Shown here: piece by piece, positions 5,977-51,639 of the stretch
Numbering within the stretch: the stretch's first letter is position 1
How the letters are laid out: each line of letters starts with the position of its first letter
Source of the DNA: Gammaproteobacteria bacterium
GTDB taxonomy: Bacteria > Pseudomonadota > Gammaproteobacteria > UBA4575
Length of the DNA: 64,000 nt
NCBI GenBank assembly: GCA_965203475.1
Contig: OZ241890.1
Span: 2,089,423 to 2,153,422, forward strand
Reading direction: 5' to 3'
Translations under genes and position numbers: made by a program
Notes under the pieces: model-generated
Seen by the model: only the letters and a program-made list of their open reading frames with translations
Database searches by the model: none
What the model was told of the DNA's origin: nothing

Positions 5977-5985
5977 GAATAATAT

Positions 5986-7817: not shown

Positions 7818-8189
7818 ATGAACGATAAAACTCTTTATGAACGCCTAGGTGGTTACGAAGGAGTAATCGCTTTTGTTGAGGACTTATTACCACGCTTAGA
7901 ATCTGATCCACAGTTGGGGCGGTTTTGGCAACATCGAGGTGATGATGGTGTAGCAAGAGAAAAACAATTACTCATTGATTATTTATGTGCGAATGCTGGC
8001 GGGCCTATGTACTACACTGGACGCGATATGAAAACTTCGCATGTTGGTATGAAAATAAGTGAAAGTGATTGGTCAATATTCATGGGCCATGCAGGAGAGA
8101 CAATGAAAGCTTTAAAAGTTTCTGACCAAGAATGTAATGAAATTGCGGAGTTTGTCACGAGTTTGAAATCAGATATTGTTGAAGTTTAA
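7818..8189 (+). CDS. glbN: truncated (2/2) haemoglobin, group I-like
   Basis: 123 aa. LYERLGG...FY start and overall trHb pattern. Strong AGGAG SD 8 nt upstream. Confidence 0.7.
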   Translation: MNDKTLYERLGGYEGVIAFVEDLLPRLESDPQLGRFWQHRGDDGVAREKQLLIDYLCANAGGPMYYTGRDMKTSHVGMKISESDWSIFMGHAGETMKALKVSDQECNEIAEFVTSLKSDIVEV

Positions 8190-8297
8190 TGTCTGCTCCG
8201 ATCCTGAGCACAGGACGTGCGAATAAGAGTTACAACAGAGATGTTGTATCAAATTTAAACTTTTATAATGTCCGTTAACGACCCAAAGCGGACATAA
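8186..8297. repeat. MITE/REP-like repeat copy A (hairpin core 8268..8295)
   Basis: ...acaaacttttataATGTCCGttaacgacccaaagCGGACATaa shares the terminal hairpin and the acaaactt-aaaatgtc block with copies at 8978, 9447, 62971 and 63666. Confidence 0.7.
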
Positions 8298-33468: not shown

Positions 33469-33654
33469 ATGGGAATTAGTCCTTGGCAATTACTCATCGT
33501 ATTACTCATTGTGGTGTTAATTTTTGGCACAAAAAAATTAAGATCGATGGGCGGCGATGTCGGTAGTGCTGTTAAAAATTTCAAAAAGTCGATGAAAGAC
33601 GAAAGCGAAGATTCAGACGACGAACCATCTGATGACACTTCACCAAAAGAATAG
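33469..33654 (+). CDS. tatA: twin-arginine translocase subunit TatA
   Basis: 61 aa. [23 protein letters not shown] followed by an amphipathic helix. Confidence 0.9.
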
Positions 33655-33660
33655 TAATTA

Positions 33661-34038
33661 ATGTTTGATTTTGGTTTTTGGGAACTTGCCATTGTAATGG
33701 TAATAGTTCTCTTAGTGGTTGGACCAGAACGATTACCCACTCTTGCTGGCCAACTAGGAAAATGGGTTGGTAAAGTAAAACGTGTAATGGAAAGTGTACG
33801 CTCAGATATTGAATCTCAAATAAAAGCTGCAGAACTTAAAGATATTCTAGAAAAACAACAAAGTGAAATTGGCGAGCTTAAAGAGATGTTAAAAGATACG
33901 AAGAAAGAAATAGAAGAAGAGAGTGATAGAAGTCTAATTGAAGCCGTAGAAAAACACATACAGTCCACAAAAGATTCACGAACCGATCAACAAGAGTTGA
34001 CGTTTAATTCTAAAACTGAAAAGCAAGATGCCGACTGA
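33661..34038 (+). CDS. tatB: twin-arginine translocase subunit TatB
   Basis: 125 aa. MFDFGFWELAIVMVIVLLVVGPERLP. Confidence 0.85.
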   Translation: MFDFGFWELAIVMVIVLLVVGPERLPTLAGQLGKWVGKVKRVMESVRSDIESQIKAAELKDILEKQQSEIGELKEMLKDTKKEIEEESDRSLIEAVEKHIQSTKDSRTDQQELTFNSKTEKQDAD

Positions 34039-34924
34039 AGATTCTTCAGAATCAAATTTAAAACAAGAAACCTTTCTTTCACATTTACGTGAATTACGCA
34101 CACGGTTGTTATGGGTCGTAGGGCTTGTTATGGCCGTTTTCTTTTGTTTATTTCCATTTGCCAATACGCTATATGGATATTTGGCGGGCCCTCTAATGGC
34201 GCATCTCCCAGAAGGTAGCTCAATGGTTGCCATTGATGTCGCATCTCCCTTTCTAACTCCTTTTAAACTTGTATTTTTACTAAGTATTGTTTTAGCGATC
34301 CCAGTTATTCTTTATCACGCATGGGCATTTATTGCCCCTGGTTTATACGGCCATGAAAAACGTTTCGTTTTTCCTATCCTAATATCAAGCTCAATACTTT
34401 TTTATGTCGGAATGGCGTTTGCTTATTTTGTGGTATTTCCGCTCATGTTTGGATTTTTTACCAAAGTGGCTCCACAAGGTGTGACGGTAATGACCGATAT
34501 TGGAAGATATTTAGATTTTGTAATGAAAATTTTTATTGCATTTGGTGTAGCGTTTGAAGTTCCAATTGTGACACTGGTAATGGTAAAACTGGGCATGACT
34601 ACGCCACAAAAGTTGGCGGATAAAAGACCCTATGTCATTGTTGCGGCATTTGTGATTGGTATGTTGCTTACACCACCCGATGTAATATCACAGGTTTTGC
34701 TGGCCATTCCAGTATGGATATTATTTGAATTAGGTTTGGTGTTAGCACGTTTAATGGTAAATAATAGGGCCTCTACAAAAAGCAAATCAGAGAAGGAATC
34801 ATCTAAAAAAGAACCACGATTTCAACCACTTACAGATGAAGAACAGGAAATGGAACTGGATGAAAAGGAACTTTTAGACGATACAGAGCCCTCTATAGAT
34901 AACGCCGATAGTAAAACGCTTTAG
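34028..34924 (+). CDS. tatC: twin-arginine translocase subunit TatC
   Basis: 298 aa. Six TM helices. LSHLRELRTRLL N-terminal signature. Confidence 0.9.
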   Translation: MPTEDSSESNLKQETFLSHLRELRTRLLWVVGLVMAVFFCLFPFANTLYGYLAGPLMAHLPEGSSMVAIDVASPFLTPFKLVFLLSIVLAIPVILYHAWAFIAPGLYGHEKRFVFPILISSSILFYVGMAFAYFVVFPLMFGFFTKVAPQGVTVMTDIGRYLDFVMKIFIAFGVAFEVPIVTLVMVKLGMTTPQKLADKRPYVIVAAFVIGMLLTPPDVISQVLLAIPVWILFELGLVLARLMVNNRASTKSKSEKESSKKEPRFQPLTDEEQEMELDEKELLDDTEPSIDNADSKTL

Positions 34925-34941
34925 TACATTTATATTTTTTC

Positions 34942-36486
34942 ATGCCAGAAGATAAATTAAATCTGCGCAATAGGGCCATGTTGTTAATCCTAGATGGGTT
35001 TGGTGTGAATCCAAGTAAAACTAATAACGCAATTTTGCACGCGGATACCCCACATTTAGATCGTTATTTTTCTAAATATCCGCATACAATTTTAGAAGCC
35101 TCAGGTGAAGCTGTAGGGCTTCCTCCAGGGCAAATGGGAAATTCTGAAGTGGGCCACATGACTATTGGTTGTGGCACCATCATTCGGCAAGACTTAATAC
35201 GCATTAATGATGCAATTGCGGATGGAAGTTTTTTTGAGATGTCTCCCTTGTTGCGTGCACTTGATAATGCAAAGAAAAAAGAAGGGCATATACATTTAAT
35301 TGGTCTTGTATCTGATGGAGGTGTACATTCGCATATTGATCATTTAATCGCATTAATAAATCTATCCAATGAAGTACAGGTAAAACCATATGTACATATG
35401 ATATCGGATGGTCGTGATTGTCCACCCAAAAATGCTGCAAAGTATATTCAACAATTATCCCCACCGCTGACGGAAGCAAAAGGCGCAATCATTACCGTAA
35501 TGGGGCGCTACTATGCGATGGATCGAGATCGAAGATGGGAGCGCACAAGAAAGGGCTGGGAGGCATTAGTAAAAGCAAAAGGAGAAAAAGCCAAAAACCC
35601 AATGGATGCCATTGAACAGGCTTATGCGCGTGGAGAAACCGATGAATTTATTTTACCCACTGTAATCGATGGCACGGTGCCTATGACCGGTGAATCCGAA
35701 GTCTTATTTTTTAATTTTAGAAATGATCGACCTCTTCAGTTGAGTAAAGCATTAGCAAAAGAAAATTTTACAGCTTTTGACCGTGGCGAAAATTATGAGC
35801 TGATTAAACTTACTAAGATGACAAAATATAGTAAAGAATTTTTGGGGCCCGTAATTTTTCCACCACGTAAACCAGAATCTAATCTTGCCGAAGTTGTGAG
35901 TGAACAAGGGCTATATCAATTTCATTGTGCTGAAACAGAAAAGTATCCACATGTCACATATTTTTTAAACGGTGGACAGGAAGAAGCATATGAAGGCGAG
36001 GATCGAAAAATGGTTCCATCGCCTAAAGTGGCAACCTACGATTTACAACCGGAAATGAGCGCTGAAGAAGTTGCAGACGAGGTTATTAAAGCCATCAATA
36101 ATGATGCCTATGCTTTAATTGTTACGAATTTTGCCAATGGTGACATGGTAGGACATACTGCGAAACAGGATGCCATCATAAAAGCCATAGAAGCATTAGA
36201 TTTACATGTGGGACGCGTGCTCGATGCGGCGGTTGAGAAAGGAATTTCAGTTGTACTTACTTCGGATCATGGGAATTGCGATGAGACGGTAGATCCAATC
36301 ACGAATGAACCACATACCCAACACACAACCTATCCAGTTCCTTGCTTAGTAATAGATAAAGAATTTAAAAATTTAATAAATGGTCAAGGCTTAAGTGCAG
36401 TTGCACCCACTATTCTTGAACTGATGGGAATAGATAAACCACCAGCGATGACCAGCAGTTCTTTGTTGTTGGATGCAAGTGATTGA
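34942..36486 (+). CDS. gpmI: 2,3-bisphosphoglycerate-independent phosphoglycerate mutase
   Basis: 514 aa. iPGM metal sites (LILDGFG, SDGGVHSH, TSDHGN). Confidence 0.9.
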   Translation: MPEDKLNLRNRAMLLILDGFGVNPSKTNNAILHADTPHLDRYFSKYPHTILEASGEAVGLPPGQMGNSEVGHMTIGCGTIIRQDLIRINDAIADGSFFEMSPLLRALDNAKKKEGHIHLIGLVSDGGVHSHIDHLIALINLSNEVQVKPYVHMISDGRDCPPKNAAKYIQQLSPPLTEAKGAIITVMGRYYAMDRDRRWERTRKGWEALVKAKGEKAKNPMDAIEQAYARGETDEFILPTVIDGTVPMTGESEVLFFNFRNDRPLQLSKALAKENFTAFDRGENYELIKLTKMTKYSKEFLGPVIFPPRKPESNLAEVVSEQGLYQFHCAETEKYPHVTYFLNGGQEEAYEGEDRKMVPSPKVATYDLQPEMSAEEVADEVIKAINNDAYALIVTNFANGDMVGHTAKQDAIIKAIEALDLHVGRVLDAAVEKGISVVLTSDHGNCDETVDPITNEPHTQHTTYPVPCLVIDKEFKNLINGQGLSAVAPTILELMGIDKPPAMTSSSLLLDASD

Positions 36487-36704
36487 TTCATAGGGTATTA
36501 TTTCATTCGCCGCATATTTCTTGATCAAAATTCACCCGACTTTCTGCGTGCTTGTCACATCGACATATGCTGCAGATCCGTAGAGGGTGCACTATACTAT
36601 TCATACACTGGCACAGTGTTTGTGGAACTGAGGAGTTCAAGTTTCACATTATAGAGTGTGTAAAAAATTAGAATAAATCACTTAATGTCGGAGGAAACAA
36701 CAAC

Positions 36705-37814
36705 ATGAGAGTAGTCTTATTGGTCATAGGCTTATCTTTGTTTGGTCTCGTGAATGCAAATTCTTTGTTAGGGTTACCAGAAGTTCCTGTCCCTGAGAAT
36801 AACCCTCAATCGGAAGCAAAAATCGCATTAGGGGAACGTCTATTTGAGGATAAACGCTTTAGTTCAACAGGCGATGTGAGTTGCGGTACTTGCCATGCAC
36901 CTGACAAAGCATTTACAGATGGGCCTTTAAGCGTTTCAGAAGGAATTAACAAACTTACGGGAACAAGAAATGCACCGACCGTAGTTAATGCTGCATTTAA
37001 TAAAACCCAATTTTGGGATGGACGCTCACCAGACCTAGAAGATCAAGCATTACATCCATTTCTAAACCCAGTTGAAATGGCATTACCTGATCATGATGCC
37101 TTATTAAAAATTGTTAGAAACGATAAAGACTATGTAAAAGCATTTAAAAGTATTTTTAATGTAAGCGCAGAAAACATTACGATGAAAGAGGTTACCAAAG
37201 CGATTGCTGCTTTTGAACGCATCCAGGTTTCTGGCAACTCCCCATTTGATCGTTGGCATTTTGGTGGCGAAAAAGATGCTATGAGTGAAGCAGCCATTCG
37301 CGGCTTTGATGTATTCATAAAACAAGGGCGTTGTGTTTCATGCCATACCATTGAGCAAGATCATGCCGTGTTTACAGATCATAAGTTTCACAATATTGGT
37401 ATTGGGATTAATAATATTCAAACTAAAGTGCCAAAACTTGCAAGTGCATTTTTGGTAGCGAAAGTTAATGGTGCTGATGTTGATGTAACTGTGCTAACGG
37501 ATGCTGATACATCTCATTTAGGTAGATTTGCAGTATCTGATGACTTAAGTGACATGGGCGGTTTTAAAACTCCTACACTTCGCAATATCGCGGTAACACC
37601 GCCTTATATGCACGATGGAAGTTTGGAGACCTTAAAAGAAGTTGTAGAACACTACAATAATGGTGGTGTTACAAATGAAGGTGATGAAGTGAACGCATTT
37701 ATTGCAGGTGGGATTCGTCCTCTTAATTTAAGCGATGAACAAATTGATGATTTGGTTGCATTTATGGAAGCGCTGACAAGCCCTGAACATAAAAATGCAA
37801 AGACTAAGAAATAA
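36705..37814 (+). CDS. di-haem cytochrome c peroxidase / MauG-family protein
   Basis: 369 aa, signal peptide. Two CxxCH (CGTCH, CVSCH) with CCP/MauG spacing. Conserved PTLRN and MHDG stretches. Confidence 0.8.
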   Translation: MRVVLLVIGLSLFGLVNANSLLGLPEVPVPENNPQSEAKIALGERLFEDKRFSSTGDVSCGTCHAPDKAFTDGPLSVSEGINKLTGTRNAPTVVNAAFNKTQFWDGRSPDLEDQALHPFLNPVEMALPDHDALLKIVRNDKDYVKAFKSIFNVSAENITMKEVTKAIAAFERIQVSGNSPFDRWHFGGEKDAMSEAAIRGFDVFIKQGRCVSCHTIEQDHAVFTDHKFHNIGIGINNIQTKVPKLASAFLVAKVNGADVDVTVLTDADTSHLGRFAVSDDLSDMGGFKTPTLRNIAVTPPYMHDGSLETLKEVVEHYNNGGVTNEGDEVNAFIAGGIRPLNLSDEQIDDLVAFMEALTSPEHKNAKTKK

Positions 37815-37828
37815 TTTCGGAGGCACTT

Positions 37829-38893
37829 ATGAATAATGACAGACGAAAATTTATTAAAGCGGCCAGCACCGGAGTTATCGCTGGCATGATGCCTATGAGC
37901 ATTGTGAAATTAGCAGGCGCAAAATCGTCAGAAGATTTTACTTTTGCCTACATTTCCGATTCGCATATTCAACATATAAAAGGCAACAAATTTGTGCGCA
38001 ATTGGGATCGTGGTTTGATACGAGCTGTAGCAGAAACCAATTTATTGGAACCCAAGCCCGATTTTGTAATATTTGGCGGAGATTTGGCGCAACTAGCTAC
38101 CAAGCCCGAACTGGATCATGGTGCAGAAATGTTGTCAGCATTGAACTATAAAACCTATATGGTCATGGGTGAGCATGATTATTATCTTGATAATGGTGAG
38201 TATTGGAGTGAGCTGTTTGGTCCACAACACTACAGCTTTGATCATAAAGGTGTGCACTTTGTTGTACTTAACAGCATTCTGACGCATGACGAATGGATGA
38301 ATCGCTACGAGACGGGTGAACAACGCATGGCCGAAATGGCAGGTTTAGATAATCCAAACGGTTCGCCATTCATGGTGGGGCAAAAACAAATCGATTGGTT
38401 GAAGCAAGACTTAAGCAACGTTAGCAAAGATACACCATTGGTAGTTCTTTCTCACTCACCGTTGCAGAAAATTTTCAAAAATTGGAATTTCTGGACGGAT
38501 GATGCTGAAGATGTACAAGCTCTACTCAAACCATATGACAAAGTAAATGTGATCTACGGACATGTGCATCAAATACAATACAACCAGATCGGCAACATTG
38601 CATTCAGTTCAGTAATGGCCACCGCATGGCCATGGCCGTATCCAAGAAGTTACACACAAGCCGAAAGTCACATGCCCGTGCTTACCGTGCCCATGAATCG
38701 CGCCGATCCATTTGACGAACGCGATGCAACTGGGTGGGAGTTTGTGAATGTACACACTGGGCGCATAGACCTGCATTACAACTTATATAGTAATGAGAAT
38801 CGTGTACTAGCCTTCAACAAAGAAAAAGGACATCCGGAAGATGTATCTTTTCAAGATCCAAGTAAGCGAATCTTACCTCAAACTCATTACTGA
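37829..38893 (+). CDS. Tat-exported calcineurin-like metallophosphoesterase
   Basis: 354 aa. Twin-arginine leader DRRKFIKAASTGVIAGMM...AGA. MPE motifs GGDLAQ, GEHDYY, VLSHSP, GHVHQ. Starts 15 nt after the CCP stop. Confidence 0.7.
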   Translation: MNNDRRKFIKAASTGVIAGMMPMSIVKLAGAKSSEDFTFAYISDSHIQHIKGNKFVRNWDRGLIRAVAETNLLEPKPDFVIFGGDLAQLATKPELDHGAEMLSALNYKTYMVMGEHDYYLDNGEYWSELFGPQHYSFDHKGVHFVVLNSILTHDEWMNRYETGEQRMAEMAGLDNPNGSPFMVGQKQIDWLKQDLSNVSKDTPLVVLSHSPLQKIFKNWNFWTDDAEDVQALLKPYDKVNVIYGHVHQIQYNQIGNIAFSSVMATAWPWPYPRSYTQAESHMPVLTVPMNRADPFDERDATGWEFVNVHTGRIDLHYNLYSNENRVLAFNKEKGHPEDVSFQDPSKRILPQTHY

Positions 38894-38913
38894 ACTTAGG
38901 AGTTAATAATAAA

Positions 38914-39318
38914 ATGAAAAAAATAAGTATCTTGGTTGTTGGCACTATAGCGATATATGTTACTTCTATGCTTGTAACTGCCGATGAGTTCACTCAAGAA
39001 GACACGGATCGCTGGTTGGCTCAATATGAAAAAGTTGCTGCTGAAGGACGTTCACATTTCACGGATCCAAAATTGGGAACCAATGGAGTGGTATGTGCAC
39101 AATGCCATCCAAATGCAGCAAATATTCATCCTGAAACCTACCCTAAATTTCAAAAACAATTAGGCCACGTTGCACAACTTTGGGAAATGATTAATTGGTG
39201 TATTCGAAATCCACTAGAAGGCGAAGAGCTTGCGGCTGGGGACCCTAAGATGACCGCTATTCTTGCCTATGTGCACAAAGAACGACGTGGTGTAAAGTTA
39301 GAACCAGGTAAACATTAG
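38914..39318 (+). CDS. mono-haem c-type cytochrome
   Basis: 134 aa. Signal peptide. Single CAQCH. Confidence 0.7.
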   Translation: MKKISILVVGTIAIYVTSMLVTADEFTQEDTDRWLAQYEKVAAEGRSHFTDPKLGTNGVVCAQCHPNAANIHPETYPKFQKQLGHVAQLWEMINWCIRNPLEGEELAAGDPKMTAILAYVHKERRGVKLEPGKH

Positions 39319-39340: not shown

Positions 39341-39365
39341 AAACCGGTATCGGTTTTCTATCGGT
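39341..39365 (+). terminator. rho-independent terminator of the CCP operon
   Basis: AAACCGgtatCGGTTTTCTAT hairpin plus U-run, 23 nt after the cytochrome c stop. Confidence 0.5.
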
Positions 39366-39544
39366 ACCTGAAGACCCTTTAAATGGTTCCCGCATAATGG
39401 TTTGAACAAAATGTAATGTTTTGTTGAACTAAAATTGTCGTTATTACCCTTGTGTATATGTCGTATTTCTTGTTGGAAAAAACTTCTACAATTCATTTCA
39501 AGAAATAAATAAAAAGTGTGTTGAATATTTAGCATATAAAAAAT

Positions 39545-40156
39545 GTGCTTAAGCTTTATAAACTAATCCCAGTTGTCATTTCTGTTGTAGTGACGATAGG
39601 TTGTAGTAATCACATTCATTTGCAAGAGGAGACGGTACCGGTTCCGCTAGTGCCCACACTACCTACTGTGATGGCGATTTACTTCGATGAAAGTATGCAA
39701 AATGTAACAGCAGAAGTAAGGGTGCCAAAGTTTGGCGATTTGACGGTATATCTTGATGCTGCCCAGACTGCGGGGTTCGATAAAGTATTTAATCAATTAT
39801 TTGTCGATACCAAGATGGTTGATAGCCCAAATTCAATTCCGATGGGATATGACGCATTAATAATCGTGGAAATGGATTCATTTACAATTTATGAAAGAGA
39901 ATATACAGGTATACCCTATTTATTTTTAGTCGAAGTTGAATATGACATTAAGGTAGAAACTGACAAAAATATTTTACTGCACCATTGGAAAATCAAAGGT
40001 GAAGGCCAATCTTACGATGCAGAAGCCAATCCTGCCCCCCTTATAAAAGAAGCGAGCGAAGTTGCAATACGTGATGCACTAGCCGATCTTATCTTCAGTT
40101 TTATTGAGGCCAGTAAAAATAATTATATACTGCAAGCCCGCTCTCAAAAAAATTAG
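39545..40156 (+). CDS. hypothetical lipoprotein
   Basis: 203 aa. Lipobox VTIGCS. Confidence 0.5.
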   Translation: MLKLYKLIPVVISVVVTIGCSNHIHLQEETVPVPLVPTLPTVMAIYFDESMQNVTAEVRVPKFGDLTVYLDAAQTAGFDKVFNQLFVDTKMVDSPNSIPMGYDALIIVEMDSFTIYEREYTGIPYLFLVEVEYDIKVETDKNILLHHWKIKGEGQSYDAEANPAPLIKEASEVAIRDALADLIFSFIEASKNNYILQARSQKN

Positions 40157-40162
40157 TCGGCT

Positions 40163-40843
40163 ATGTTACATAAACATCAAAAATTACAACGAGTATTTAC
40201 ATTTATACCTGTACTTTTAATACATGCTGGCTGTGTATCAACTAATGTTGAAGGAACTATGTTGACTCAAAAAAATACAATAGAACAAGGTAAAGTTACA
40301 GTGTTATCACAGAGTATTGCAGCGGGAAATGAAACAGAGAAAAAATTTACCAAATGCGTCATAAAGAAAATAAAAGCAATGTTGCCTCAGGATTCTTATC
40401 TAGATAATCAAGAATTTATTAATGCAATGTATCCTTGGTTTGAGCCAGAACGCTTTCCAAGTGACATTGTTCAATTAAGAAGTATTTTGGAAAAACCGTT
40501 AATTACTGAAAAAATTAATTCATTACATGTTCGATATATGGTGTTACTTACCGGAAATACAGTAGATGTGAATAAAAAAGAATGTGGTGCATGTAGTGTT
40601 GCGCCACTGCTGGTTGGTATGCCTGGTTTAGCCACCTTTGATAAACAAGCAAGCTATGTTATTGAGATCTGGGATTTAAAAAAACAAGAAGCAATTGTTG
40701 ATTTAAATGTTGGTGGAACGAGTACAATCTATATGCCGATACTACCCATCGTGGCCCTACCGATACCAATGGGAGGGGACATACAAGAAGCTTCTTGCAA
40801 AGAATTAGGAAAGCAAATGCAAAAGTTTTTTACTGATGCTTAA
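40163..40843 (+). CDS. hypothetical lipoprotein
   Basis: 226 aa. Lipobox LIHAGCVS. 7-nt gap to the preceding lipoprotein gene. Confidence 0.5.
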   Translation: MLHKHQKLQRVFTFIPVLLIHAGCVSTNVEGTMLTQKNTIEQGKVTVLSQSIAAGNETEKKFTKCVIKKIKAMLPQDSYLDNQEFINAMYPWFEPERFPSDIVQLRSILEKPLITEKINSLHVRYMVLLTGNTVDVNKKECGACSVAPLLVGMPGLATFDKQASYVIEIWDLKKQEAIVDLNVGGTSTIYMPILPIVALPIPMGGDIQEASCKELGKQMQKFFTDA

Positions 40844-40844: not shown

Positions 40845-41387
40845 TTAGCCACCACAAATCTGAGTGATCTGATCGGTAGTAAATCCTTTATCAATATAAA
40901 ATGTGACATCCTCTTTACTACAAGAGTTTGCAGCGGCCGTTGAAGCAGGTTGATTTTTTTGATAATCAATTCCACCTTGATCTTCTGCTTTTTTAAGCGA
41001 GATCATAGCCTCTTTCAAAGCATCCACTTCACTTTGTAAAGCATCAATTTTTTGTTTTTCTTTATCCTTGGCTTCTTGTCGTTCACGGGCACCGCGATGA
41101 CCACCAGCTTTATGCTCATTTAAAAAATACTCAGAGTTGAGTAATTTAGGATTAGTAACTCTTTTATATTGTTCTGCAGGAGAATAGGCTTCCCCTTCTC
41201 GTTTCACTGTACTGTTGATATCGACCGGAGATTTTTTCTCTTTTTCAGCTTCTATTTCTTCAACATCCGCCTCCGCAATGAGTTGGTCTTCATCACCATC
41301 CCCGAAAAAAGGCATGGAAGAACAACTAGCGAATAAAACTAGACTTAAAATTGAAGCTGTATATGTTATGAAATTTCGATTAGTCAT
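40845..41387 (-). CDS. hypothetical lipoprotein with acidic and coiled-coil regions
   Basis: 180 aa. Lipobox LFASCSS. EAEKEKK / KQKIDALQSEVDALKEAMISLKK heptad-like stretch. Cys-containing C-terminus. Confidence 0.45.
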   Translation of the reverse strand: MTNRNFITYTASILSLVLFASCSSMPFFGDGDEDQLIAEADVEEIEAEKEKKSPVDINSTVKREGEAYSPAEQYKRVTNPKLLNSEYFLNEHKAGGHRGARERQEAKDKEKQKIDALQSEVDALKEAMISLKKAEDQGGIDYQKNQPASTAAANSCSKEDVTFYIDKGFTTDQITQICGG

Positions 41388-41518: not shown

Positions 41519-43327
41519 TTAGAAGGCCCAGACGAATTCCATGGCTAAACGCACAGCTTCTTCGTCTTCTTCTTGACCGGCATAAGCTTCAATCAGTTCT
41601 TCAACCCCATCACCGGGGAAGAACACAGAAGCCTGAGTTTTAACCGTTGTATTTGGAGTTAAACCCCAGTCCAACTGGTTGGACCACTCCCAGCCAATTT
41701 CTTCTTCATCAACTTCTACATAACCAGTCGCAGATACACCACCAACACCAGGCGTAAATCCAGCTACAGATGAGTTACGAGCTACATAAAAGTCTTCGTT
41801 CCATCGCATATAGCGGAGACGTGATTTGAATTTTACATGTGGCTTGAGTTGCATGGTTGCAACCGCAGAAATTTCAGCATAACCGGGATTATCACCACGG
41901 CCAGCACCACCTGAGAAGCCGCCGTCAAAGTTGGCAATACCACCTACTTTAACCGGGGTACCATTACCTAATCCTTCTGGCAAGTGAGAGAATACTGGAA
42001 GACCTAGCATGAAGTTGCCATCCCCTACAAAGGTGTTTTCACCACCCCAGGAGGAGAAGCGTTGGTCACACATGACACAGATGAAGCCTTCCAAGTCATC
42101 ATCGTCACCATCATCATCACCTGAGGTGTAAATACCATCAAGGCGAAGATTGAGCTTGTCGGTAACTTGAAGTGCTGCATAGGCAGAGAATGCATAAGCA
42201 TTAACATCAAACGAATCATCCACTGCTGTTACACCATCAACAAAGTTAACAAGTGTTGCACCATTGTTAATGTCAGCTTCACCAGTATTGTAGTAAGCGC
42301 CTAAATGGGTACTTAAATTGCCCCATGAGGCATTCCAGTAGGCACCAAAGTGATGCACATCAAAGTCTGATTTTTCTACAAAGCCAGAAGCGGCAATATT
42401 GTTATTTAAGAATGCATTTAGATCTGCAACGACTTCGTTCGCAGACTTATCATAGGCATACATCAAACGTAAATTACCATTGCCCAGTGCAAGATCAGCA
42501 AAGCCCATAACTGCTTCACGGTCATCATTGTCTGTAGCGCCACAAGCAAGACCTGCTCCAGCGGTTTGACCTCCGCCAAAGCCACCAAAGTCACCGGCAC
42601 ATTCACCAGCGGCTGCTTGGAATGCATTTTCACCGGGACGGGACAACTTGTTTCGTTCATTGAATACATGGTAGCCAATGTTAAACCACATTTTATCGTT
42701 GGGTTTACCCACTAGCCATAAGGCTGCGGTGTCATCACCAAACATTAAGGCCGCACCACCGACAGTGTCCACATCCACAAATTCAAAACCAGCATGTAAG
42801 CGTAAGGTGTCAGTAAGCAGCATAGAACCATTCAAACGTTCGATACCGAAGTCACTGGTTCCTGCACCTACTTTACCGCCAGAGTCACCTGAAGCTACAT
42901 CCAGCAAGTTGTCATAAGCGGCATGTGCGTGAAAACTGGCTCGACCATCATTGGATAACCAGTTGAAGAACATATTGAACTCATTACGAATATAGTCACC
43001 GCCTAACAAGCCGCCTTCCGCAAAGTGAATACGGCCCCAGTCAGCACCAATGTTATCATCTGGAACTGTACGGGCACCACCTTGATCGACGATCGCCTCT
43101 CTCAGGCCAAAGTCCCAGTCATGCTCATAGGTAGGGATGAAGCGGTTGACCATACCTAAACTAAATTGTCCGGTTGCATTACGTATGACAAAGCTGCCTG
43201 GCCCTAATAAGCCACCACAACAGCCATATCCACCATCTTTCAGAATGTCATATTCTTTTGCGAATACACCACTGGATAGTGAAAGCGCGCAAACAGCCAG
43301 GACAAATCCTAGTAGTTTACTTTTCAT
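41519..43327 (-). CDS. large outer-membrane beta-barrel protein with Gly/Asp-rich acidic loops (putative porin/channel)
   Basis: 602 aa. Signal peptide. Alternating amphipathic strands. C-terminal EFVWAF aromatic terminus. Loops such as GDDDGDDDD and GGFGGGQTAGAG. Confidence 0.6.
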   Translation of the reverse strand: MKSKLLGFVLAVCALSLSSGVFAKEYDILKDGGYGCCGGLLGPGSFVIRNATGQFSLGMVNRFIPTYEHDWDFGLREAIVDQGGARTVPDDNIGADWGRIHFAEGGLLGGDYIRNEFNMFFNWLSNDGRASFHAHAAYDNLLDVASGDSGGKVGAGTSDFGIERLNGSMLLTDTLRLHAGFEFVDVDTVGGAALMFGDDTAALWLVGKPNDKMWFNIGYHVFNERNKLSRPGENAFQAAAGECAGDFGGFGGGQTAGAGLACGATDNDDREAVMGFADLALGNGNLRLMYAYDKSANEVVADLNAFLNNNIAASGFVEKSDFDVHHFGAYWNASWGNLSTHLGAYYNTGEADINNGATLVNFVDGVTAVDDSFDVNAYAFSAYAALQVTDKLNLRLDGIYTSGDDDGDDDDLEGFICVMCDQRFSSWGGENTFVGDGNFMLGLPVFSHLPEGLGNGTPVKVGGIANFDGGFSGGAGRGDNPGYAEISAVATMQLKPHVKFKSRLRYMRWNEDFYVARNSSVAGFTPGVGGVSATGYVEVDEEEIGWEWSNQLDWGLTPNTTVKTQASVFFPGDGVEELIEAYAGQEEDEEAVRLAMEFVWAF

Positions 43328-43954: not shown

Positions 43955-44023
43955 ATGACCGTAAATTTATTACTCGCACTTTTTGTCCTGATCGCCGGGG
44001 CAGCAATCTTAATTTGGAATTGA
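43955..44023 (+). CDS. possible 22-aa hydrophobic micro-protein (MTVNLLLALFVLIAGAAILIWN)
   Basis: ATG...TGA read directly from the sequence. Single TM-like helix. No convincing SD. Convergent with the 44050..44454 gene. Confidence 0.25.
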   Translation: MTVNLLLALFVLIAGAAILIWN

Positions 44024-44049
44024 GCATTAACTCGATTTTTGAATAAGGT

Positions 44050-44454
44050 TTAATGGGGTCGTCGAGTTAATTTTTCGATGGGCGTAAAGGTTAAGTGAGT
44101 CTCATCTTGATAAGGCCGAATAAAATCAAGTGCTATGATAATTTCTCCGTCTTGTTCAATAGCTTTTAGCTGTTTCAAATCTGGCAAGGCGGTCGCGATA
44201 TAGGCACAGCTTGCTGCTGCCAACGTATCTTCCTCATTCATTATAGCTGAGACTAAATTAGCAGCTACAAATTCGATTCTTTGTTCTTTGGTTGGATTAG
44301 CTAGAAATTGATTGTTTAACGTAATTCCCTGGTCTAGTTTATCATTCATTAAATCGAGAGATTCACCTTGTTTTTTAGATAGTATTTTATTTCTATCGTA
44401 TTCCAAGATAGCAGAGCCATTCAATGAAACCGTTAACAAATCTTTACTCAACAT
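44050..44454 (-). CDS. hypothetical acidic cytoplasmic protein
   Basis: 134 aa. No signal peptide. 25-nt gap downstream of the 577-aa gene, so likely co-transcribed. Confidence 0.5.
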   Translation of the reverse strand: MLSKDLLTVSLNGSAILEYDRNKILSKKQGESLDLMNDKLDQGITLNNQFLANPTKEQRIEFVAANLVSAIMNEEDTLAAASCAYIATALPDLKQLKAIEQDGEIIIALDFIRPYQDETHLTFTPIEKLTRRPH

Positions 44455-44478
44455 ACAAACAATGAATTTAAGAGATGA

Positions 44479-46212
44479 CTAGTTAAATGGCTCGTAATAG
44501 GGGAACGATTTATTCTCTTGAGGATTTGTAGTTTTTTTATGACTTAATTTGCGAATGCTTTCTTTAATGGCTTGATCGTGCGGATATATTTCTAAGGCTT
44601 TGCTGTAAAAATATTTTGCACGTTTTAAATCATTGCTATTTTCGTAATGTTTCCCCCAGCTCACATATCTTGCATGTATATCATCAACACCTTTAATTGC
44701 ATCAGCATTATTTGGATCCATAGATAAAATCGTATGATAGGTTTCGTATGCGTTATCCCCGCTAGGTGAGGTTAATTTTTTATTATCAAATTGTAATTTT
44801 GCTATGTTGAGTAACACTTGAAAATCGTTGGACAAGTTTTCTGACTTTTTTTCAATGACGGTTTCCTCAACTTGCACGTGAGCATCTAGTTCATTTTCTT
44901 TCACTTGATTTTCAATAGCCACATGGGTCTTGGATTCTTCATTTAAATTTGTTTGTACATTTGGCGGGATAATATTTAATGATGTCTGCTCTGTACTATT
45001 GATTGGCTCAAGATCAGTAGCAGATATGTCTTCAGCAGCAATGTCGATACTCAATTTTTGAGATACATTTTTTTCTAAAGAAATTTCTACTGCATGAATC
45101 GATGTAGATTTTTTATTAATCGGAGAAAAATGAACTAAACTAACAAATATAATGAGTCCAGTTGTAAGGGCAATGAATAAAGGTTTTTTGCCAGGAAAGG
45201 TATCAATTTTTTTTACATTAAATTTGGGTATCTCATCACTCACTATTTCAAAAACTGGCTTGTTACTATTGTTTGCTGATTCGGCTAGTGTAGTAATAGT
45301 AGGTATCTTTGTTATTTCAGCTGCTTCATTTTCATTTATAGTCTCTTTTTCGGCGATGATTTCAGATTCATTTTCTGTATCATCTTCATAGGCTAAGGGA
45401 GGGTAAGCGTGTTTTAAATCTATTTCATATTTTATAGAGTGTTGCTCTAACAAGTCTAAGATGTGGCAAGCATTTTCTTCCGTAAACTCCTCTAACTGTT
45501 CAGTGGCAGCAACGAATGAACACCATTCTAATAAAACATCTAATTTATTTAAGTCGTTTCCAATAAAATCAATTATTATCCCTAGTGATTCCTCATCAAA
45601 TGTAATACGTTTAATATTAGATTCAATTTGATAACTTTTATTTGCAATAAATTCTAAAATTGTATCTTCAGTTAGTTTATCAATAGAAATAGTTACGAGC
45701 TCATTTTCTAAAAACGTTACACTTGATATTAATTCATCTTTAAATTCAGTAGATCCCGTTAAAATTAATTTAATATCACTATTGTTATCTACTAATTCTT
45801 TTGAAGCACTAACAATTGTATTGAGCTGCTGAATTTTTAACGCGTCTGCATTGTCAAGTAAAACAGTTATTTTTTCGTTAAGACTTGCGGAGCCTTTTAT
45901 GTGGTCTATGATGTAATTTATATCTAGCGAACTGTTTTGTTTATTTTTATGTGTCGATAATTTTCTATTAGTAGAATGATTTAAAGATAGTTTATTACAC
46001 CGCATAAAAATTAAACGTGAATTTGCAGCGATCTCTACCCCGATATTTTTTACTAGTCTATTTTTATAATCACAATGTTCACTTGTAATCAAAATAAACT
46101 TTGAATCATCCGAAATTATTTTATAAATGGTATCGAGCACCTTGCGGTTGTAACTATCTGGTGACAGGGAAGAGTCATGCTCTTTTGCAAGGCTGAAGGC
46201 GCTGGCACTCAT
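44479..46212 (-). CDS. ExeA/GspA-like protein with degenerate P-loop, one TM segment and periplasmic TPR repeats
   Basis: 577 aa. N-terminal region follows the AAA_22/ExeA pattern, but the Walker A is replaced (FILITSEHCDYKNRL). TM at about residues 340-360. TPR-like C-terminus (AYETYHTILSMDPNNADA...RAKYFYSKALEIYPHD). Confidence 0.5.
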   Translation of the reverse strand: MSASAFSLAKEHDSSLSPDSYNRKVLDTIYKIISDDSKFILITSEHCDYKNRLVKNIGVEIAANSRLIFMRCNKLSLNHSTNRKLSTHKNKQNSSLDINYIIDHIKGSASLNEKITVLLDNADALKIQQLNTIVSASKELVDNNSDIKLILTGSTEFKDELISSVTFLENELVTISIDKLTEDTILEFIANKSYQIESNIKRITFDEESLGIIIDFIGNDLNKLDVLLEWCSFVAATEQLEEFTEENACHILDLLEQHSIKYEIDLKHAYPPLAYEDDTENESEIIAEKETINENEAAEITKIPTITTLAESANNSNKPVFEIVSDEIPKFNVKKIDTFPGKKPLFIALTTGLIIFVSLVHFSPINKKSTSIHAVEISLEKNVSQKLSIDIAAEDISATDLEPINSTEQTSLNIIPPNVQTNLNEESKTHVAIENQVKENELDAHVQVEETVIEKKSENLSNDFQVLLNIAKLQFDNKKLTSPSGDNAYETYHTILSMDPNNADAIKGVDDIHARYVSWGKHYENSNDLKRAKYFYSKALEIYPHDQAIKESIRKLSHKKTTNPQENKSFPYYEPFN

Positions 46213-48668: not shown

Positions 48669-49169
48669 ATGAATTTTCGTTTTCTAAATTTCATTACAAT
48701 TTCATTTTTAATTTTTATTCCGTTTACAGTTTCTGCAATCTCTGTTGGCGATAATGTTCCTTCGTTTAAAGCGCGCACCATTGATGGAAGTAAAAATGTT
48801 GCACTAGAAGATTATCGAGGCAAAGTTGTGTTAGTCGATTTTTGGGCATCGTGGTGTCCACCCTGTCTTAAATCGTTACCAAAATATAATGAGCTTCGTC
48901 GTCAAATTGGCACAGCAAATTTTGAAATAGTTGCGATTAATGTTGATGAAAATACGGAAGATGCAAAAAAGTTTTTAGAAAAACATCCTGTAAGTTACCC
49001 CATTGCTAAAGATCCTAAAGGAGTGTTGCCTGGAGTATTTGGTGTGAAGGCAATGCCAACTTCTTATCTGGTGGATAAAAATGGGGTTGTTCAATATGTG
49101 CATGCTGCATTTAAGGAAGGCGATATTGAAAAACTAAGAATCAAAATCGAACAGTTAATCGCTCAATAA
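48669..49169 (+). CDS. periplasmic TlpA/ResA-like thiol:disulfide oxidoreductase
   Basis: 166 aa. Signal peptide. Thioredoxin fold with FWASWCPPC. Confidence 0.8.
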   Translation: MNFRFLNFITISFLIFIPFTVSAISVGDNVPSFKARTIDGSKNVALEDYRGKVVLVDFWASWCPPCLKSLPKYNELRRQIGTANFEIVAINVDENTEDAKKFLEKHPVSYPIAKDPKGVLPGVFGVKAMPTSYLVDKNGVVQYVHAAFKEGDIEKLRIKIEQLIAQ

Positions 49170-49176
49170 ATTTTCC

Positions 49177-49407
49177 ATGCAAAATTTATTTCAAAAGTTA
49201 ACCATCCTAGGTATTACGGCTCTAGTTGTACTGACATTTTCTGCTTGCACCACGGTTAAACCATGGGAGCGTGGAATTCTTGCCAAAAAAGAAATGGCAT
49301 GGGAACCAGATGCTCTTGCCGGGCAACTTCAAGAACATGTGTATTTTAGTAAAGAAGGGTCCTCTGGCGGCTATGGAGCTGGTGGTGGCGGTTGTGGTTG
49401 TAACTAG
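49177..49407 (+). CDS. DUF4266-like small lipoprotein
   Basis: 76 aa. Lipobox FSACTT. TVKPWERGILAK motif. Gly-rich Cys tail GGGGCGCN. Confidence 0.6.
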   Translation: MQNLFQKLTILGITALVVLTFSACTTVKPWERGILAKKEMAWEPDALAGQLQEHVYFSKEGSSGGYGAGGGGCGCN

Positions 49408-49430
49408 GTAAAAAAATTCAAAAAATTTAA

Positions 49431-50642
49431 ATGAAAAATAAATCAAGCGGAATTAGCCCGACATTAGCAGCTTTAACCTCAGCAGCGATGACACTCCCTG
49501 GTATTAGTTCAAGTGTAAAAGCGGCGGTGGCAGAAAATCAGCCTTCACTTTCATTTCAATACACACGTTATGACGAAGATTCCATTCCAAGTGGTGATGC
49601 CGACCCAAATGTTGGTGATCGTGGCCGCTATGAAATTGATGTCGCACAAATAGAATTTTTGTATCCACTGAATGAGAAATGGCAGCTTAATGGTGGATTT
49701 ACCTATGACGATATGAGTGGTTCTTCACCTTGGTATGTACGTCCTACAGATACAATTAATGCGACAGGAGATCCACTGGTGGTAATGAGTGGTGCTACTA
49801 TTGATGACACACGTTATGATTTTTCTTTTGGCGCCGAATATTTTGGAGACAATTACACGGTTGCACCTTCCGTAGGATTTTCAACGGAAGAGGATTATGA
49901 AGCCATTAGTGGGAGCCTTGAAGTTGAATATGAATTTCCGAATAAAGCGACTTCGGTAAGAGGCGGTATTGCAGTTTCCTTTGACGAAATTGATCCTACT
50001 CAGGAAGAAGGCACGATACGCGTCGACAACGAAGATAAAGAGAATTACTCCATCTTTGGTGGGGTTACTCAAGTCATTAATAAATATACTGTGTTGCAAG
50101 CGACACTTGGCGTTTCTTATTTTGATGGCTTTTTATCAGATCCTTATAAACAAGCCTGGGTCGCGGGTGCCGTGCTACCAGACAGTCGACCCGACGAGCG
50201 AACGCAATATACTTTTTCTACACGATTACGCCGGTATTCCGAATTACTTGAAGCCGCATTTCATGTTGATTATCGATTTTTTTATGATGATTGGGATGTA
50301 CGCTCGCATACATTAGACTTAGGCTTATACAAACAGACTCTTACAGGATGGGGATTTGATGCCTCCATCCGATATTATTCACAAACTCAAGCTGATTTTT
50401 ATGAGCCGTTTTATCGCACAGTACGCAGCGATGGTGAGTATTCTAGTGATTATCGGCTTTCACCCTATGGTTCCATCGCTTTTCGATTAGGAATTTCTGA
50501 AACCATCGGGAATTGGACAATTAGAACCTCGGCTGAACGTTATATCAGTGATAAATCTTATTCCATACAAACAGTTGATGTTGAGAATCCATCATTACTA
50601 GATTACACATTGTTTAGTTTTGGCATTGATTATAAATTTTAA
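49431..50642 (+). CDS. DUF3570-like outer-membrane beta-barrel, candidate flavinylation substrate
   Basis: 403 aa. Signal peptide. C-terminal FGIDYKF aromatic end. Internal S-G-A-T (aa 120-123, nt 49788..49799) matching the ApbE [S/T]GA[T/S] site. Confidence 0.6.
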   Translation: MKNKSSGISPTLAALTSAAMTLPGISSSVKAAVAENQPSLSFQYTRYDEDSIPSGDADPNVGDRGRYEIDVAQIEFLYPLNEKWQLNGGFTYDDMSGSSPWYVRPTDTINATGDPLVVMSGATIDDTRYDFSFGAEYFGDNYTVAPSVGFSTEEDYEAISGSLEVEYEFPNKATSVRGGIAVSFDEIDPTQEEGTIRVDNEDKENYSIFGGVTQVINKYTVLQATLGVSYFDGFLSDPYKQAWVAGAVLPDSRPDERTQYTFSTRLRRYSELLEAAFHVDYRFFYDDWDVRSHTLDLGLYKQTLTGWGFDASIRYYSQTQADFYEPFYRTVRSDGEYSSDYRLSPYGSIAFRLGISETIGNWTIRTSAERYISDKSYSIQTVDVENPSLLDYTLFSFGIDYKF

Positions 50643-50730
50643 TTTGTAGTCTAGTTGCGGTTCACTTTATTACTTCCATGTAACCGTGTTTTAAATTTAG
50701 TACACTGTTTTCTTTTTATATATTCCAATT

Positions 50731-51639
50731 TTGGAACTGCATACCTTTCCCTTCAAAGCAATGGGCTCGCCATGCGAGTTCCGCCTTTATGCAGAAGAAA
50801 AAAAATTTGCGAGTCATGTCGCTGATCGGGCGATTGCAGAGTTACAACGCCTAGAAAAAAAATATTCGCGTTATCGTGATGACAGTGTTACCACGAAAAT
50901 TAATCAATACGCGGGTGATAAAAATGGAATTGAACTAGATGAAGAAACATCACTTCTATTAAATTATGCCCAAGTAGGGTTTGAGCAAAGTGATGGCTTG
51001 TTCGATATTAGTTCTGGAATTTTACGGAAAGCGTGGAATTTTCGATCGAACCAATTACCTTCTCAGGAAGAAATTGACAAACTTTTACCCTTAATTGGTT
51101 GGGATAAGCTTAGTTGGAATAAGCCAATTTTGTGTTTGCCGCAAAAAGGCATGGAAGTAGATTTTGGTGGTTACGTAAAAGAATATGCGGCTGATGTAGC
51201 AGTAAATGTGTGCCGTCAAGAAGGGATTCAACATGGATTGGTTAATTTGGGGGGTGATATTTGCATTGTTGGCCCACATCCAAATGGTAATGCATGGAAA
51301 ATTGGTGTTCGACATCCGCGCAACCCCGAAATTCCTATGTCTTTTGTATTTTTAGAGCAAGGAGGACTGGCGAGTAGCGGCGACTATGAACGTTTTATGA
51401 TGGTTGGTGGAAAACGCTATGCCCATATATTGAATCCAAAAACTGGTTGGCCGGTGCAAAGCCTGGCATGTACAAGTGTGTATGCTGATCAGTGTGTCGT
51501 TGCTGGGACTTCTTCTACAATTGCGATGTTAAAAGGTGAACAGGATGGTATTAAATGGTTGGATGAGTTGGGCTTACCTTATATAGGTATGAATCAGAAC
51601 TTAGAAATTTTTGGTACATTAAAATTTGTGGAAGAGTAA
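50731..51639 (+). CDS. apbE: ApbE-family FAD:protein FMN transferase (no signal peptide or lipobox in this reading frame)
   Basis: 302 aa. ApbE core (KAMGSPCEF, GGYVKEYA, GGDICIVG). Start is TTG at 50731 or ATG at 50761. An in-frame stop at 50698 precludes an N-terminal extension. Confidence 0.75.
   Translation: MELHTFPFKAMGSPCEFRLYAEEKKFASHVADRAIAELQRLEKKYSRYRDDSVTTKINQYAGDKNGIELDEETSLLLNYAQVGFEQSDGLFDISSGILRKAWNFRSNQLPSQEEIDKLLPLIGWDKLSWNKPILCLPQKGMEVDFGGYVKEYAADVAVNVCRQEGIQHGLVNLGGDICIVGPHPNGNAWKIGVRHPRNPEIPMSFVFLEQGGLASSGDYERFMMVGGKRYAHILNPKTGWPVQSLACTSVYADQCVVAGTSSTIAMLKGEQDGIKWLDELGLPYIGMNQNLEIFGTLKFVEE

Follow-up and report, generated by a model that had tools for sequence, protein, structure and literature searches.

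A conserved gene trio encoding a MauG-type di-haem protein, a Tat-exported metallophosphoesterase-fold protein and a SoxA/TsdA-type cytochrome c: a possible periplasmic redox module

Results

Locus and gene products

This analysis concerns three adjacent genes in a 64,000-nucleotide stretch of contig OZ241890.1 (hereafter the window), which belongs to a gammaproteobacterium of the UBA4575 lineage. The three open reading frames (ORFs) encode a MauG-type member of the di-haem cytochrome c peroxidase (CCP) family, a metallophosphoesterase (MPE) exported by twin-arginine translocation (Tat), and a small cytochrome c:

36705-37814, plus strand: ORF1, MauG-type di-haem cytochrome c peroxidase family protein, 369 amino acids (aa), with a Sec signal peptide (Pfam CCP_MauG)
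37829-38893, plus strand: ORF2, Tat-exported binuclear metallophosphoesterase-fold protein (the MPE), 354 aa (Pfam Metallophos)
38914-39318, plus strand: ORF3, small exported mono-haem cytochrome c of the SoxA/TsdA family, 134 aa (Pfam PF21342)

All three lie on the plus strand where an earlier reading of the bare sequence (the original prediction) had placed them. Its gap of 20 nt between ORF2 and ORF3 was correct, while the gap between ORF1 and ORF2 is 14 nt and not the 15 nt given. Each ORF is preceded by a Shine-Dalgarno sequence (GGAGG or AGGAG) 6-11 nt 5' of its ATG.

ORF1 matches CCP_MauG (Pfam PF03150) with an E-value of 8e-58, and its haem-binding features are as follows:

36882-36896, plus strand: haem motif CGTCH (from the sequence)
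37332-37346, plus strand: haem motif CVSCH (from the sequence)
37647-37655, plus strand: EHY, containing the predicted axial ligand Y317 (from alignment)

In alignments Y317 occupies the position of the axial Met258 of NeCCP and of a tyrosine in 6e1c, and all 103 clade A and B sequences examined (clades defined below) have Tyr at the axial Met position. By alignment, the ORF1 loop SEGINKLTGTRNAPT, whose counterpart in activatable peroxidases provides the distal His, contains no His, and the inter-haem Trp (FWDGR) is retained. The top PDB match of ORF1 is 6e1c, a 'Di-heme enzyme' that we take to be MbnH, followed by canonical peroxidases and MauG. The best NCBIfam models, MbnH (TIGR04039, 253.8 bits against a cut-off of 362.85) and MauG (TIGR03791, 201.7 bits against 443.85), were both sub-threshold. 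His-Tyr versus His-Met ligation of the E haem separates MauG-type from canonical enzymes; the former use hydrogen peroxide (H2O2) as oxidant, and their E haems have potentials of approximately -100 to -200 mV (PMC11892367). With Tyr317 in place of the axial Met, no distal His in the loop and the inter-haem Trp present, ORF1 is, judged by its sequence, a MauG-type protein with predicted His-Tyr ligation of the E haem. The same Tyr and His-free loop rule out a canonical bacterial cytochrome c peroxidase. MauG proper and MbnH were also rejected, given the sub-cut-off scores and neighbours that comprise the MPE and the cytochrome but no mauA/B or mbnP.

The Metallophos match of ORF2 (Pfam PF00149) has an E-value of 4.6e-13 and scores 50.5 bits against a cut-off of 21.5. 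Its export signal and five superfamily motifs are located as follows:

37841-37858, plus strand: Tat motif RRKFIK (from the sequence)
37955-37966, plus strand: motif I, SDSH (from the sequence)
38075-38083, plus strand: motif II, GGD (from the sequence)
38168-38179, plus strand: variant motif III, GEHD, with Glu for the canonical metal-ligand Asn (from a profile alignment)
38450-38461, plus strand: motif IV, SHSP (from the sequence)
38558-38569, plus strand: motif V, GHVH (from the sequence)

The leader is a textbook match to the Tat consensus, with D-R-R-K-F-I-K followed by a hydrophobic stretch and LAGA (A-G-A). The RR pair is invariant across 35 diverse MPE relatives, and several homologues carry a Pfam TAT_signal annotation. 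Motifs I, II, IV and V are canonical, whereas the family profile alignment places GEHD at motif III against the GNHD of GpdQ and Rv0805, and the Glu aligns with the Asn that ligates the second metal (Asn80 in GpdQ, Asn97 in Rv0805). GEHD and the RR leader are both kept in relatives down to ~30% identity, and the C-terminal QTHY is clade-specific. The MPE contains no Cys and has many invariant Trp and Tyr residues (WNFW, AWPWPYP). On this motif evidence it is a calcineurin-like superfamily member with four intact motifs and a variant site.

The predicted metal ligands of the MPE are Asp44, His46, Asp85, Glu115, His209, His245 and His247, and the Asn-to-Glu change would give each metal two His and one carboxylate in addition to the bridging Asp. 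Four His, two Asp and one Glu is also the ligand composition of the flavodiiron di-iron site, which belongs to another hydrolase fold turned redox enzyme. By analogy, this composition suggests that the MPE may be suited to redox chemistry, and its two-metal site probably contains iron. The closest folds to the AlphaFold2 model (predicted local distance difference test, pLDDT, 83) are GpdQ, Rv0805 and purple acid phosphatases at 15-17% identity, and the fold matches include no close solved structure. These three relatives use binuclear centres of the Fe/Mn type and have four of the five MPE motifs in common with ORF2. They differ in that GpdQ and Rv0805 have Asn where the MPE has the ligand Glu, and in that members of the MPE family are exported by Tat and are always accompanied by a redox partner of their own. 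A purple acid phosphatase was rejected because motif II reads GGDLAQ and lacks the Tyr ligand of GDxxY. SoxB was rejected because it is a two-domain 5'-nucleotidase-type protein of ~560 aa, whereas the MPE is a single catalytic domain of 354 aa; SoxB was absent from the 22 PDB sequence-profile matches and the top 50 fold matches of the MPE, and a 5'-nucleotidase ranked 50th in the fold list.

The MPE could be an ordinary secreted phosphodiesterase of the Icc/CpdA/GpdQ kind, uncoupled from the other two proteins and merely co-operonic with a peroxidase and its cytochrome c donor. Automated annotations label its homologues CpdA/Icc, the complete hydrolytic motif set apart from the Asn is present (including His116), and the closest folds are those of GpdQ and Rv0805. 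However, the NCBIfam CpdA model scores only 39.5 bits against a cut-off of 225, on which basis a CpdA/Icc cyclic-nucleotide phosphodiesterase was rejected. Furthermore, this explanation does not sit well with the strict, order-conserved linkage of the genes across phyla and three divergent clades, with the co-inheritance of the three proteins, or with the persistence of a redox partner where the peroxidase is absent (all described below), and we judge it very improbable.

ORF3 is a single SoxA/TsdA cytochrome c domain (PF21342, E-value 2.2e-11, 44 bits against a cut-off of 27) with two notable sites:

39094-39108, plus strand: haem motif CAQCH (from the sequence)
39193-39201, plus strand: invariant NWC, containing the predicted Cys axial ligand C96 (from alignment)

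C96 is the only Cys outside the haem motif and aligns with the haem-ligand Cys of SoxA (1h31) and TsdA (4wq7). In the homologue alignment C61, C64, H65, W95 and C96 are invariant, and residue 76 is Phe in clade C, in contrast to a Tyr in the clades with the peroxidase. The AlphaFold2 model is of low confidence (pLDDT 65), so that its first 11 PDB fold matches, all to TsdA, SoxA or TsdBA, are supportive only. Automated annotation by the Joint Genome Institute names the homologues 'thiosulfate dehydrogenase'. However, the thiosulfate-binding R82 and R92 of TsdA align with Q82 and M92 and are not conserved, the best SoxA match is to the N-terminal haem domain rather than the catalytic one, and the score against SoxA proper (TIGR04484) is 39.6 bits with a cut-off of 110. 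SoxA proper and TsdA were rejected on this sub-cut-off score, the single 134-aa domain and the missing arginines. Because the arginines are unconserved and the best SoxA match is the N-terminal domain, ORF3 appears to be a SoxA/TsdA-type cytochrome with a predicted His/Cys haem but not an orthologue of either protein.

The original prediction had thus correctly recognised ORF1 as MauG-type instead of a canonical peroxidase (Tyr317 for the axial Met, no distal His) and ORF2 as a Tat-exported binuclear MPE (DRRKFIK leader, Metallophos match). It had also called ORF3 a cytochrome c, which it is, though not a generic one: the protein is a single-domain SoxA/TsdA-type cytochrome with a conserved ligand Cys.

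Conservation of the trio

The MPE has 4683 homologues in the database, the top 120 at 71-87% identity. A first set of 80 genome loci was supplemented by a metagenome scan that used an alignment of 6 distant relatives and gave 80 more loci; the loci fall into three clades. Clade counts come from a profile-based recount restricted to loci with enough flanking sequence and, since loci were gathered by sequence similarity, are not an unbiased census. The order CCP-MPE-cytochrome was found in all 80 genome loci, save those cut by contig ends. In clade A, to which the window belongs, a CCP gene lies directly upstream of the MPE in 83/83 loci and a cytochrome gene directly downstream in 90/90. The corresponding counts for clade B, which is diverged (~45% identity among sampled members), are 16/16 and 19/20. 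When loci were instead chosen from the CCP side, the trio was present in 3/3. The pairwise identities obtained for one protein correlate with those for the others (r = 0.6-0.7), and within clade A the MPE is the most conserved (median 73%, minimum 64%).

Clade A includes the gammaproteobacterial Woeseiaceae, Steroidobacter, Methylobacter, Aliikangiella, Marinobacterium and Tahibacter, and extends to Nitrosomonas, Hyphomicrobiales, Acidobacteriota, Planctomycetota, Gemmatimonadales, Latescibacterota, Methylomirabilota, Bdellovibrionales and Trichloromonas; the trio is kept intact in at least 8 bacterial phyla. The original prediction had been prepared to fall if the trio were not conserved as a unit elsewhere, and these counts show that it is. 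Because the gene order recurs in clade A and B loci with enough flanking DNA, chance cannot plausibly explain the arrangement; the three genes form a real unit, and their products are co-inherited.

Three loci were unusual. Plasmid p1 of Methylocystis bryophila (positions 5932-7008 of locus L165) carries a lone clade A MPE gene (66% identity) without CCP and cytochrome genes, adjoining IS110 fragments and siderophore/nonribosomal peptide synthetase genes; it looks like a decayed copy of the trio and says nothing about function. A metagenome-assembled genome labelled Bathyarchaeia contains the trio with 73% MPE identity, and the archaeal label probably reflects binning contamination or recent transfer. 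At locus L172 the MPE is split into two ORFs by a frameshift or an assembly error. The same locus, on one long contig, has a gene for the nitric oxide (NO)-response membrane protein NnrS (positions 820-1962) divergent from the trio, the one indication that the trio might be connected with NO stress.

Clade C and cupredoxin-paired relatives

Clade C keeps the MPE-cytochrome pair, but an adjacent di-haem gene was found in 0/22 loci, and a cupredoxin-like gene lies directly upstream of the MPE in 20 of 27. The upstream protein is exported and has the invariant motifs N.DP..HNTHG and CD.HGWM (C-x2-H-x2-M), followed by a CarboxypepD_reg domain; its N-terminal domain (loci L114-L152; e.g. L138, positions 1376-2113) was not recognised by Pfam. 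The HNTH and C-x2-H-x2-M motifs would fit a type-1 copper site of the amicyanin kind, and the protein apparently represents an unclassified exported family. Genes for a cbb3-type oxidase (CcoN and a CcoO/P fusion) occur in 10-11 loci, and a SoxY-SoxZ fusion with a Tat signal is encoded beside the MPE-cytochrome pair in 7 loci. This fusion, found at L117 (positions 7399-8262) and at six loci like it, has a further match to the desulfoferrodoxin/neelaredoxin iron domain (HPM..EHHI, CNRHG) and could be a superoxide reductase-like iron protein instead of a sulfur carrier.

On pSymA of S. meliloti, the gene order is cbb3 subunits I and II, SCO, a cupredoxin-like gene, the MPE and a 'hypothetical' protein that is of SoxA/TsdA type by Pfam. 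Divergent from this cupredoxin-MPE-cytochrome set are genes for a flavocytochrome c sulfide dehydrogenase (FCSD)-like flavoprotein, a cytochrome c, soxZ and soxY. This region is the accessory 'soxYZEF-like' island, whose presence has been noted in 7 of 33 strains (PMC4053727). Ralstonia solanacearum and Burkholderia cenocepacia encode a 33%-identical MPE with an RR leader and GEHD, followed by a Cupredoxin_1 protein; an extracytoplasmic function sigma/anti-sigma pair lies upstream at the Ralstonia locus, and these Ralstonia/Burkholderia loci contain no match to the CCP profile.

Clade C retains nearly all conserved aromatic and metal-site residues of the MPE and the cytochrome. Across the family, the constant is an MPE with a small dedicated redox protein, and the di-haem enzyme is one of several oxidising partners. 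Since the sister clade without a peroxidase gene has a cupredoxin in its place, the di-haem enzyme is accessory, and the existence of this clade argues against an obligatory maturase role for it.

Recurrent neighbours: sulfur, peroxide, iron and nitric oxide

An exported rhodanese gene abuts the trio in 24 of 80 clade A loci, usually immediately upstream, and overlaps the CCP start in L173. The upstream rhodaneses of ~17 loci (L001, L004, L008, L024, L033, L049, L173 and others) have, beyond the catalytic CRxGKR loop, a conserved (V/M)FNCG motif that contains a second Cys and precedes a variable tail, while the downstream rhodaneses of the Steroidobacter type lack FNCG. By analogy, the Cys-bearing tail of the rhodanese recalls a SoxY-like carrier arm. 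A Fur/PerR-like regulator is encoded in 23 of 80 clade A loci, and genes for OxyR-like LysR regulators, ferritin/bacterioferritin-like proteins and peroxiredoxins are recurrent near the trio. There were no Pho-regulon genes among the recurrent neighbours.

The peroxide- and NO-related neighbours could relate to defence against reactive oxygen or nitrogen species, with the MPE acting as a periplasmic di-iron reductase for H2O2, O2, superoxide or NO that is fed by the cytochrome and works alongside the peroxidase. The flavodiiron-like ligand set of the MPE is consistent with such a role, as are the OxyR-like, Fur/PerR-like, ferritin/bacterioferritin, peroxiredoxin and NnrS neighbours, and the cbb3 oxidase context of clade C would fit. 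However, the cassette encodes no electron source, the SoxYZ, FCSD, rhodanese and SoxA-type links are left unexplained, and there would be no reason for a MauG-type over a canonical peroxidase. Defence is, on balance, decidedly unlikely as the primary role.

Alternatively, the module might resemble EfeB/EfeO and use H2O2 to oxidise Fe(II) in the periplasm, limiting Fenton chemistry or feeding iron storage. This would be in keeping with the Fur-family regulators and with the bacterioferritin/ferritin genes beside the cassette in several lineages, but both kinds of neighbour are equally expected of a peroxide regulon and no iron transporter is linked. Moreover, the potential of a His/Cys haem is far too low to take electrons from Fe(II). 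Iron handling thus seems extremely improbable.

Flanking DNA in the window

Two non-coding features border the trio:

36487-36704, plus strand: 218-nt intergenic spacer upstream of ORF1, the presumed promoter region (from its position)
39346-39368, plus strand: 9-bp hairpin (GGTATCGGT/ATCGGTACC), 28 nt past the last stop codon (from folding)

No sigma-70 consensus site was found in the 218-nt spacer, whose sequence is not conserved among the closest relatives. A palindrome noted by eye in the spacer, considered as an upstream operator, was dropped, since the repeat finder did not report it and the region is unconserved. The terminator that the original prediction had placed at 39341 was not borne out: a consensus scan past ORF3 returned no intrinsic terminator, and the hairpin there has no T-tract (the 70-nt stretch has a folding z-score of -0.98). 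Although not a canonical intrinsic terminator, the hairpin may mark the end of the operon.

The flanks of the trio in the window (his genes, tatABC, gpmI and two unannotated lipoprotein-like ORFs) are common to the closest relatives only. Positions 33469-36486 hold tatA, tatB, tatC and then gpmI, followed by the Tat-dependent trio. The order hisF-hisE-tatABC-gpmI-trio is present in the closest relatives (L081, L082, L083) and absent from other lineages, and because of this confinement the adjacency of tatABC to the trio is probably a coincidence. Downstream, two exported or lipoprotein-like ORFs of 203 and 226 aa (39545-40156 and 40163-40843) match nothing in Pfam or NCBIfam at a significant level; unannotated genes of like size occupy the same position in L081 and L083 and are missing from 80 more distant loci. 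These are followed by a 180-aa ORF without assignment (40845-41387) and, on the minus strand (41519-43327), by an exported Gly/Asp-rich protein of 602 aa that has no Pfam match and a C-terminus (...VWAF) of a kind frequent in outer-membrane proteins.

Further along, positions 44001-46000 have a GC content of 0.32, against a window mean of ~0.39, and a strong negative AT skew. This region covers a 577-aa ORF (44479-46212, minus strand) and a 134-aa ORF without a Pfam match, and may be acquired DNA. A cluster at 48669-51639 encodes a TlpA/AhpC-like thioredoxin-fold protein, a DUF3570 protein and the flavin transferase ApbE; it resembles a set for redox maturation in the periplasm and has no evident connection to the trio.

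Discussion

The trio probably performs redox chemistry, possibly on sulfur compounds, and not simple hydrolysis of phosphate compounds. We favour, tentatively, the possibility that the MPE and the cytochrome oxidise or otherwise process a reduced sulfur compound and that the MauG-type enzyme uses H2O2 to remove the electrons. The three genes would then constitute one periplasmic redox module, in which the variant-site MPE is paired with a dedicated His/Cys-haem cytochrome and the two together bind a low-potential substrate and either oxidise it or hydrolyse it oxidatively. Reduced sulfur would be the likeliest substrate, in the form of an oxyanion or of a sulfane or S-sulfonate bound to a protein Cys, with the cytochrome in the role of SoxA and the MPE in that of SoxB. 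At this locus the MauG-type enzyme would take the electrons: H2O2 would raise it to a high-valent state, and its partners would be re-oxidised by long-range electron transfer. It would act catalytically and not as a one-off, the net result being substrate oxidation coupled to periplasmic H2O2 reduction, while elsewhere in the family the electrons would exit to a cupredoxin and a cbb3 oxidase. The metal identity, electron direction, substrate and physical complex in this scheme are all as we infer them.

Four points put sulfur chemistry first among the possible reactions: the haem is of SoxA type, SoxYZ and FCSD genes occur as neighbours, so do rhodanese genes, and the module is analogous to SoxA, SoxB and SoxYZ. 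A redox module would also explain the MauG-type character of ORF1, because such enzymes draw electrons from a partner protein, and it would make clear why clade C can do without the di-haem gene. The potentials of MauG-type E haems suit a low-potential His/Cys haem donor. The original prediction had offered, as one of two readings, a periplasmic redox enzyme reduced via the cytochrome c; gene context favours a redox enzyme, but electrons are more likely to leave the MPE and cytochrome than to arrive by that route.

Several observations weigh against this scheme. Three His-Tyr di-haem enzymes have been studied, and none is known to act as a routine sink for electrons: MauG and MbnH act on a partner protein, which they oxidise or modify, and BthA shows turnover with H2O2 (PMC6405878). 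Two published pairings of MauG-like genes with iron phosphatases point towards activation and not electron flow (PMC6405878, PMC8812569). Since the hydrolytic motifs of the MPE, including His116, are complete but for the Asn, it may be a plain hydrolase. The cytochrome lacks the TsdA arginines, and its best SoxA match is to a domain that is not the catalytic one. Sulfur genes accompany a minority of loci only, and the window itself contains no rhodanese, SoxYZ, Fur/PerR-like, bacterioferritin, ferritin, peroxiredoxin or OxyR genes in its 64 kb. The similarity-based gathering of loci also limits what the counts can carry.

The main rival, which was the second reading of the original prediction, is maturation or activation: the MauG-type enzyme would use H2O2 to modify its neighbour once, yielding an active periplasmic phosphoesterase. 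Such a modification could convert Trp or Tyr into a protein-derived cofactor, or Fe(II) into Fe(III) in the Tat-exported metal site, with the cytochrome supplying or removing electrons. By alignment ORF1 belongs to the His-Tyr class, in which MauG, and presumably also MbnH, modifies a partner protein encoded nearby (PMC11892367). Two published pairings strengthen this explanation: BthA always adjoins a putative purple acid phosphatase (PMC6405878), and Flavobacterium phoX is in an operon with a MauG-like gene, both being induced by phosphate depletion (PMC8812569). The abundance of invariant Trp and Tyr in the MPE would offer sites for modification, and cytochrome residue 76 is Tyr precisely in the clades that contain the peroxidase.

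However, the conservation of nearly all the same aromatic and metal-site residues in clade C, where the di-haem gene is lacking, weakens the case for maturation, and the upstream slot in that clade is held by an electron carrier, the cupredoxin. Pho-regulon genes are lacking among the recurrent neighbours, and identity above 64% across phyla would be unusual for a scavenging phosphatase. Furthermore, ORF1 is distant from BthA (E ~1e-12), and the Burkholderia homologue of the MPE lies beside a cupredoxin gene with no CCP-profile match. Weighing these points, we regard one-time maturation as somewhat unlikely.

MauG with pre-methylamine dehydrogenase and MbnH with MbnP resemble ORF1 in the di-haem CCP_MauG fold, the predicted His-Tyr E haem, the missing distal His and the inter-haem Trp, and their genes lie beside those of their partners, as ORF1 lies directly beside its presumed partner, the MPE. 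MauA is also Tat-exported, like the MPE. The trio differs in its sub-cut-off scores, in the absence of methylamine dehydrogenase and MbnP genes, and in having the MPE and a cytochrome as partners. The BthA-PhosA pair of Burkholderia and the MauG-like/phoX pair of Flavobacterium likewise combine a MauG-type or MauG-like peroxidase gene with an exported metallophosphatase, for which a function has been proposed at most (PMC6405878, PMC8812569). However, BthA is remote from ORF1 and lacks the inter-haem Trp, PhosA has been described as purple-acid-phosphatase-like and PhoX has a different fold, whereas the MPE belongs to the GpdQ/Rv0805 branch with GEHD; neither pair has been reported with a SoxA-type cytochrome. 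Orthology to BthA/PhosA was rejected, given that BthA chains match at ~1e-12 only and that the Burkholderia/Ralstonia homologues of the MPE sit beside cupredoxins.

The Sox system (SoxAX, SoxB, SoxYZ) likewise combines a Cys-ligated SoxA-family haem protein with a Tat-exported binuclear hydrolase of the MPE superfamily, all in the periplasm, and some relatives of the trio have a SoxYZ-type carrier or a Cys-tailed rhodanese. Unlike the Sox system, the trio has no SoxX or SoxCD, its MPE is not a SoxB orthologue, its cytochrome scores below the SoxA cut-off, and a MauG-type peroxidase is present instead. TsdA is of the same domain family as ORF3 (PF21342), and C96 of ORF3 falls on Cys96 of TsdA, but TsdA has two haems to the one of ORF3, the substrate-binding arginines are absent from ORF3, and ORF3 is always paired with an MPE.

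The original prediction had also held that the arrangement is not a described system. A full-text literature search returned no description of the trio, or of an MPE with a SoxA-type cytochrome, and only irrelevant matches for a metallophosphoesterase with SoxY or with a cupredoxin; furthermore, no NCBIfam model matched any of the three proteins at its curated cut-off. The claim thus stands for the trio as a whole, though the pairing of a MauG-like gene with a metallophosphatase gene has precedents (PMC6405878, PMC8812569).

Extended to the whole family, the redox scheme would make the GEHD Tat-MPE proteins the first oxidoreductase lineage of the calcineurin-like phosphoesterase fold. Their two-metal site would oxidise a low-potential oxyanion or protein-bound sulfur (sulfite, S-sulfonate, conceivably phosphite). 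A dedicated carrier, which could be a His/Cys cytochrome or a cupredoxin, would hand the electrons on, either to the MauG-type peroxidase or to a cbb3 oxidase. We consider this broader claim doubtful.

The cassette occurs with thousands of homologues in many phyla of sediment, soil and marine bacteria, where it is annotated only as 'cAMP phosphodiesterase', 'cytochrome c peroxidase' and 'cytochrome c'. Since cultured hosts include Steroidobacter, Aliikangiella, Marinobacterium and Tahibacter, with S. meliloti and Ralstonia in sister clades, the proposal is directly testable. A redox-coupled MPE would broaden the chemistry attributed to a very large superfamily of hydrolases. If the scheme is true, the poorly understood MauG-type enzymes, among which the activity of BthA is still called cryptic, would gain a catalytic, respiratory-like physiological role, and the trio could reveal an unrecognised route joining sulfur oxidation to the removal of periplasmic peroxide.

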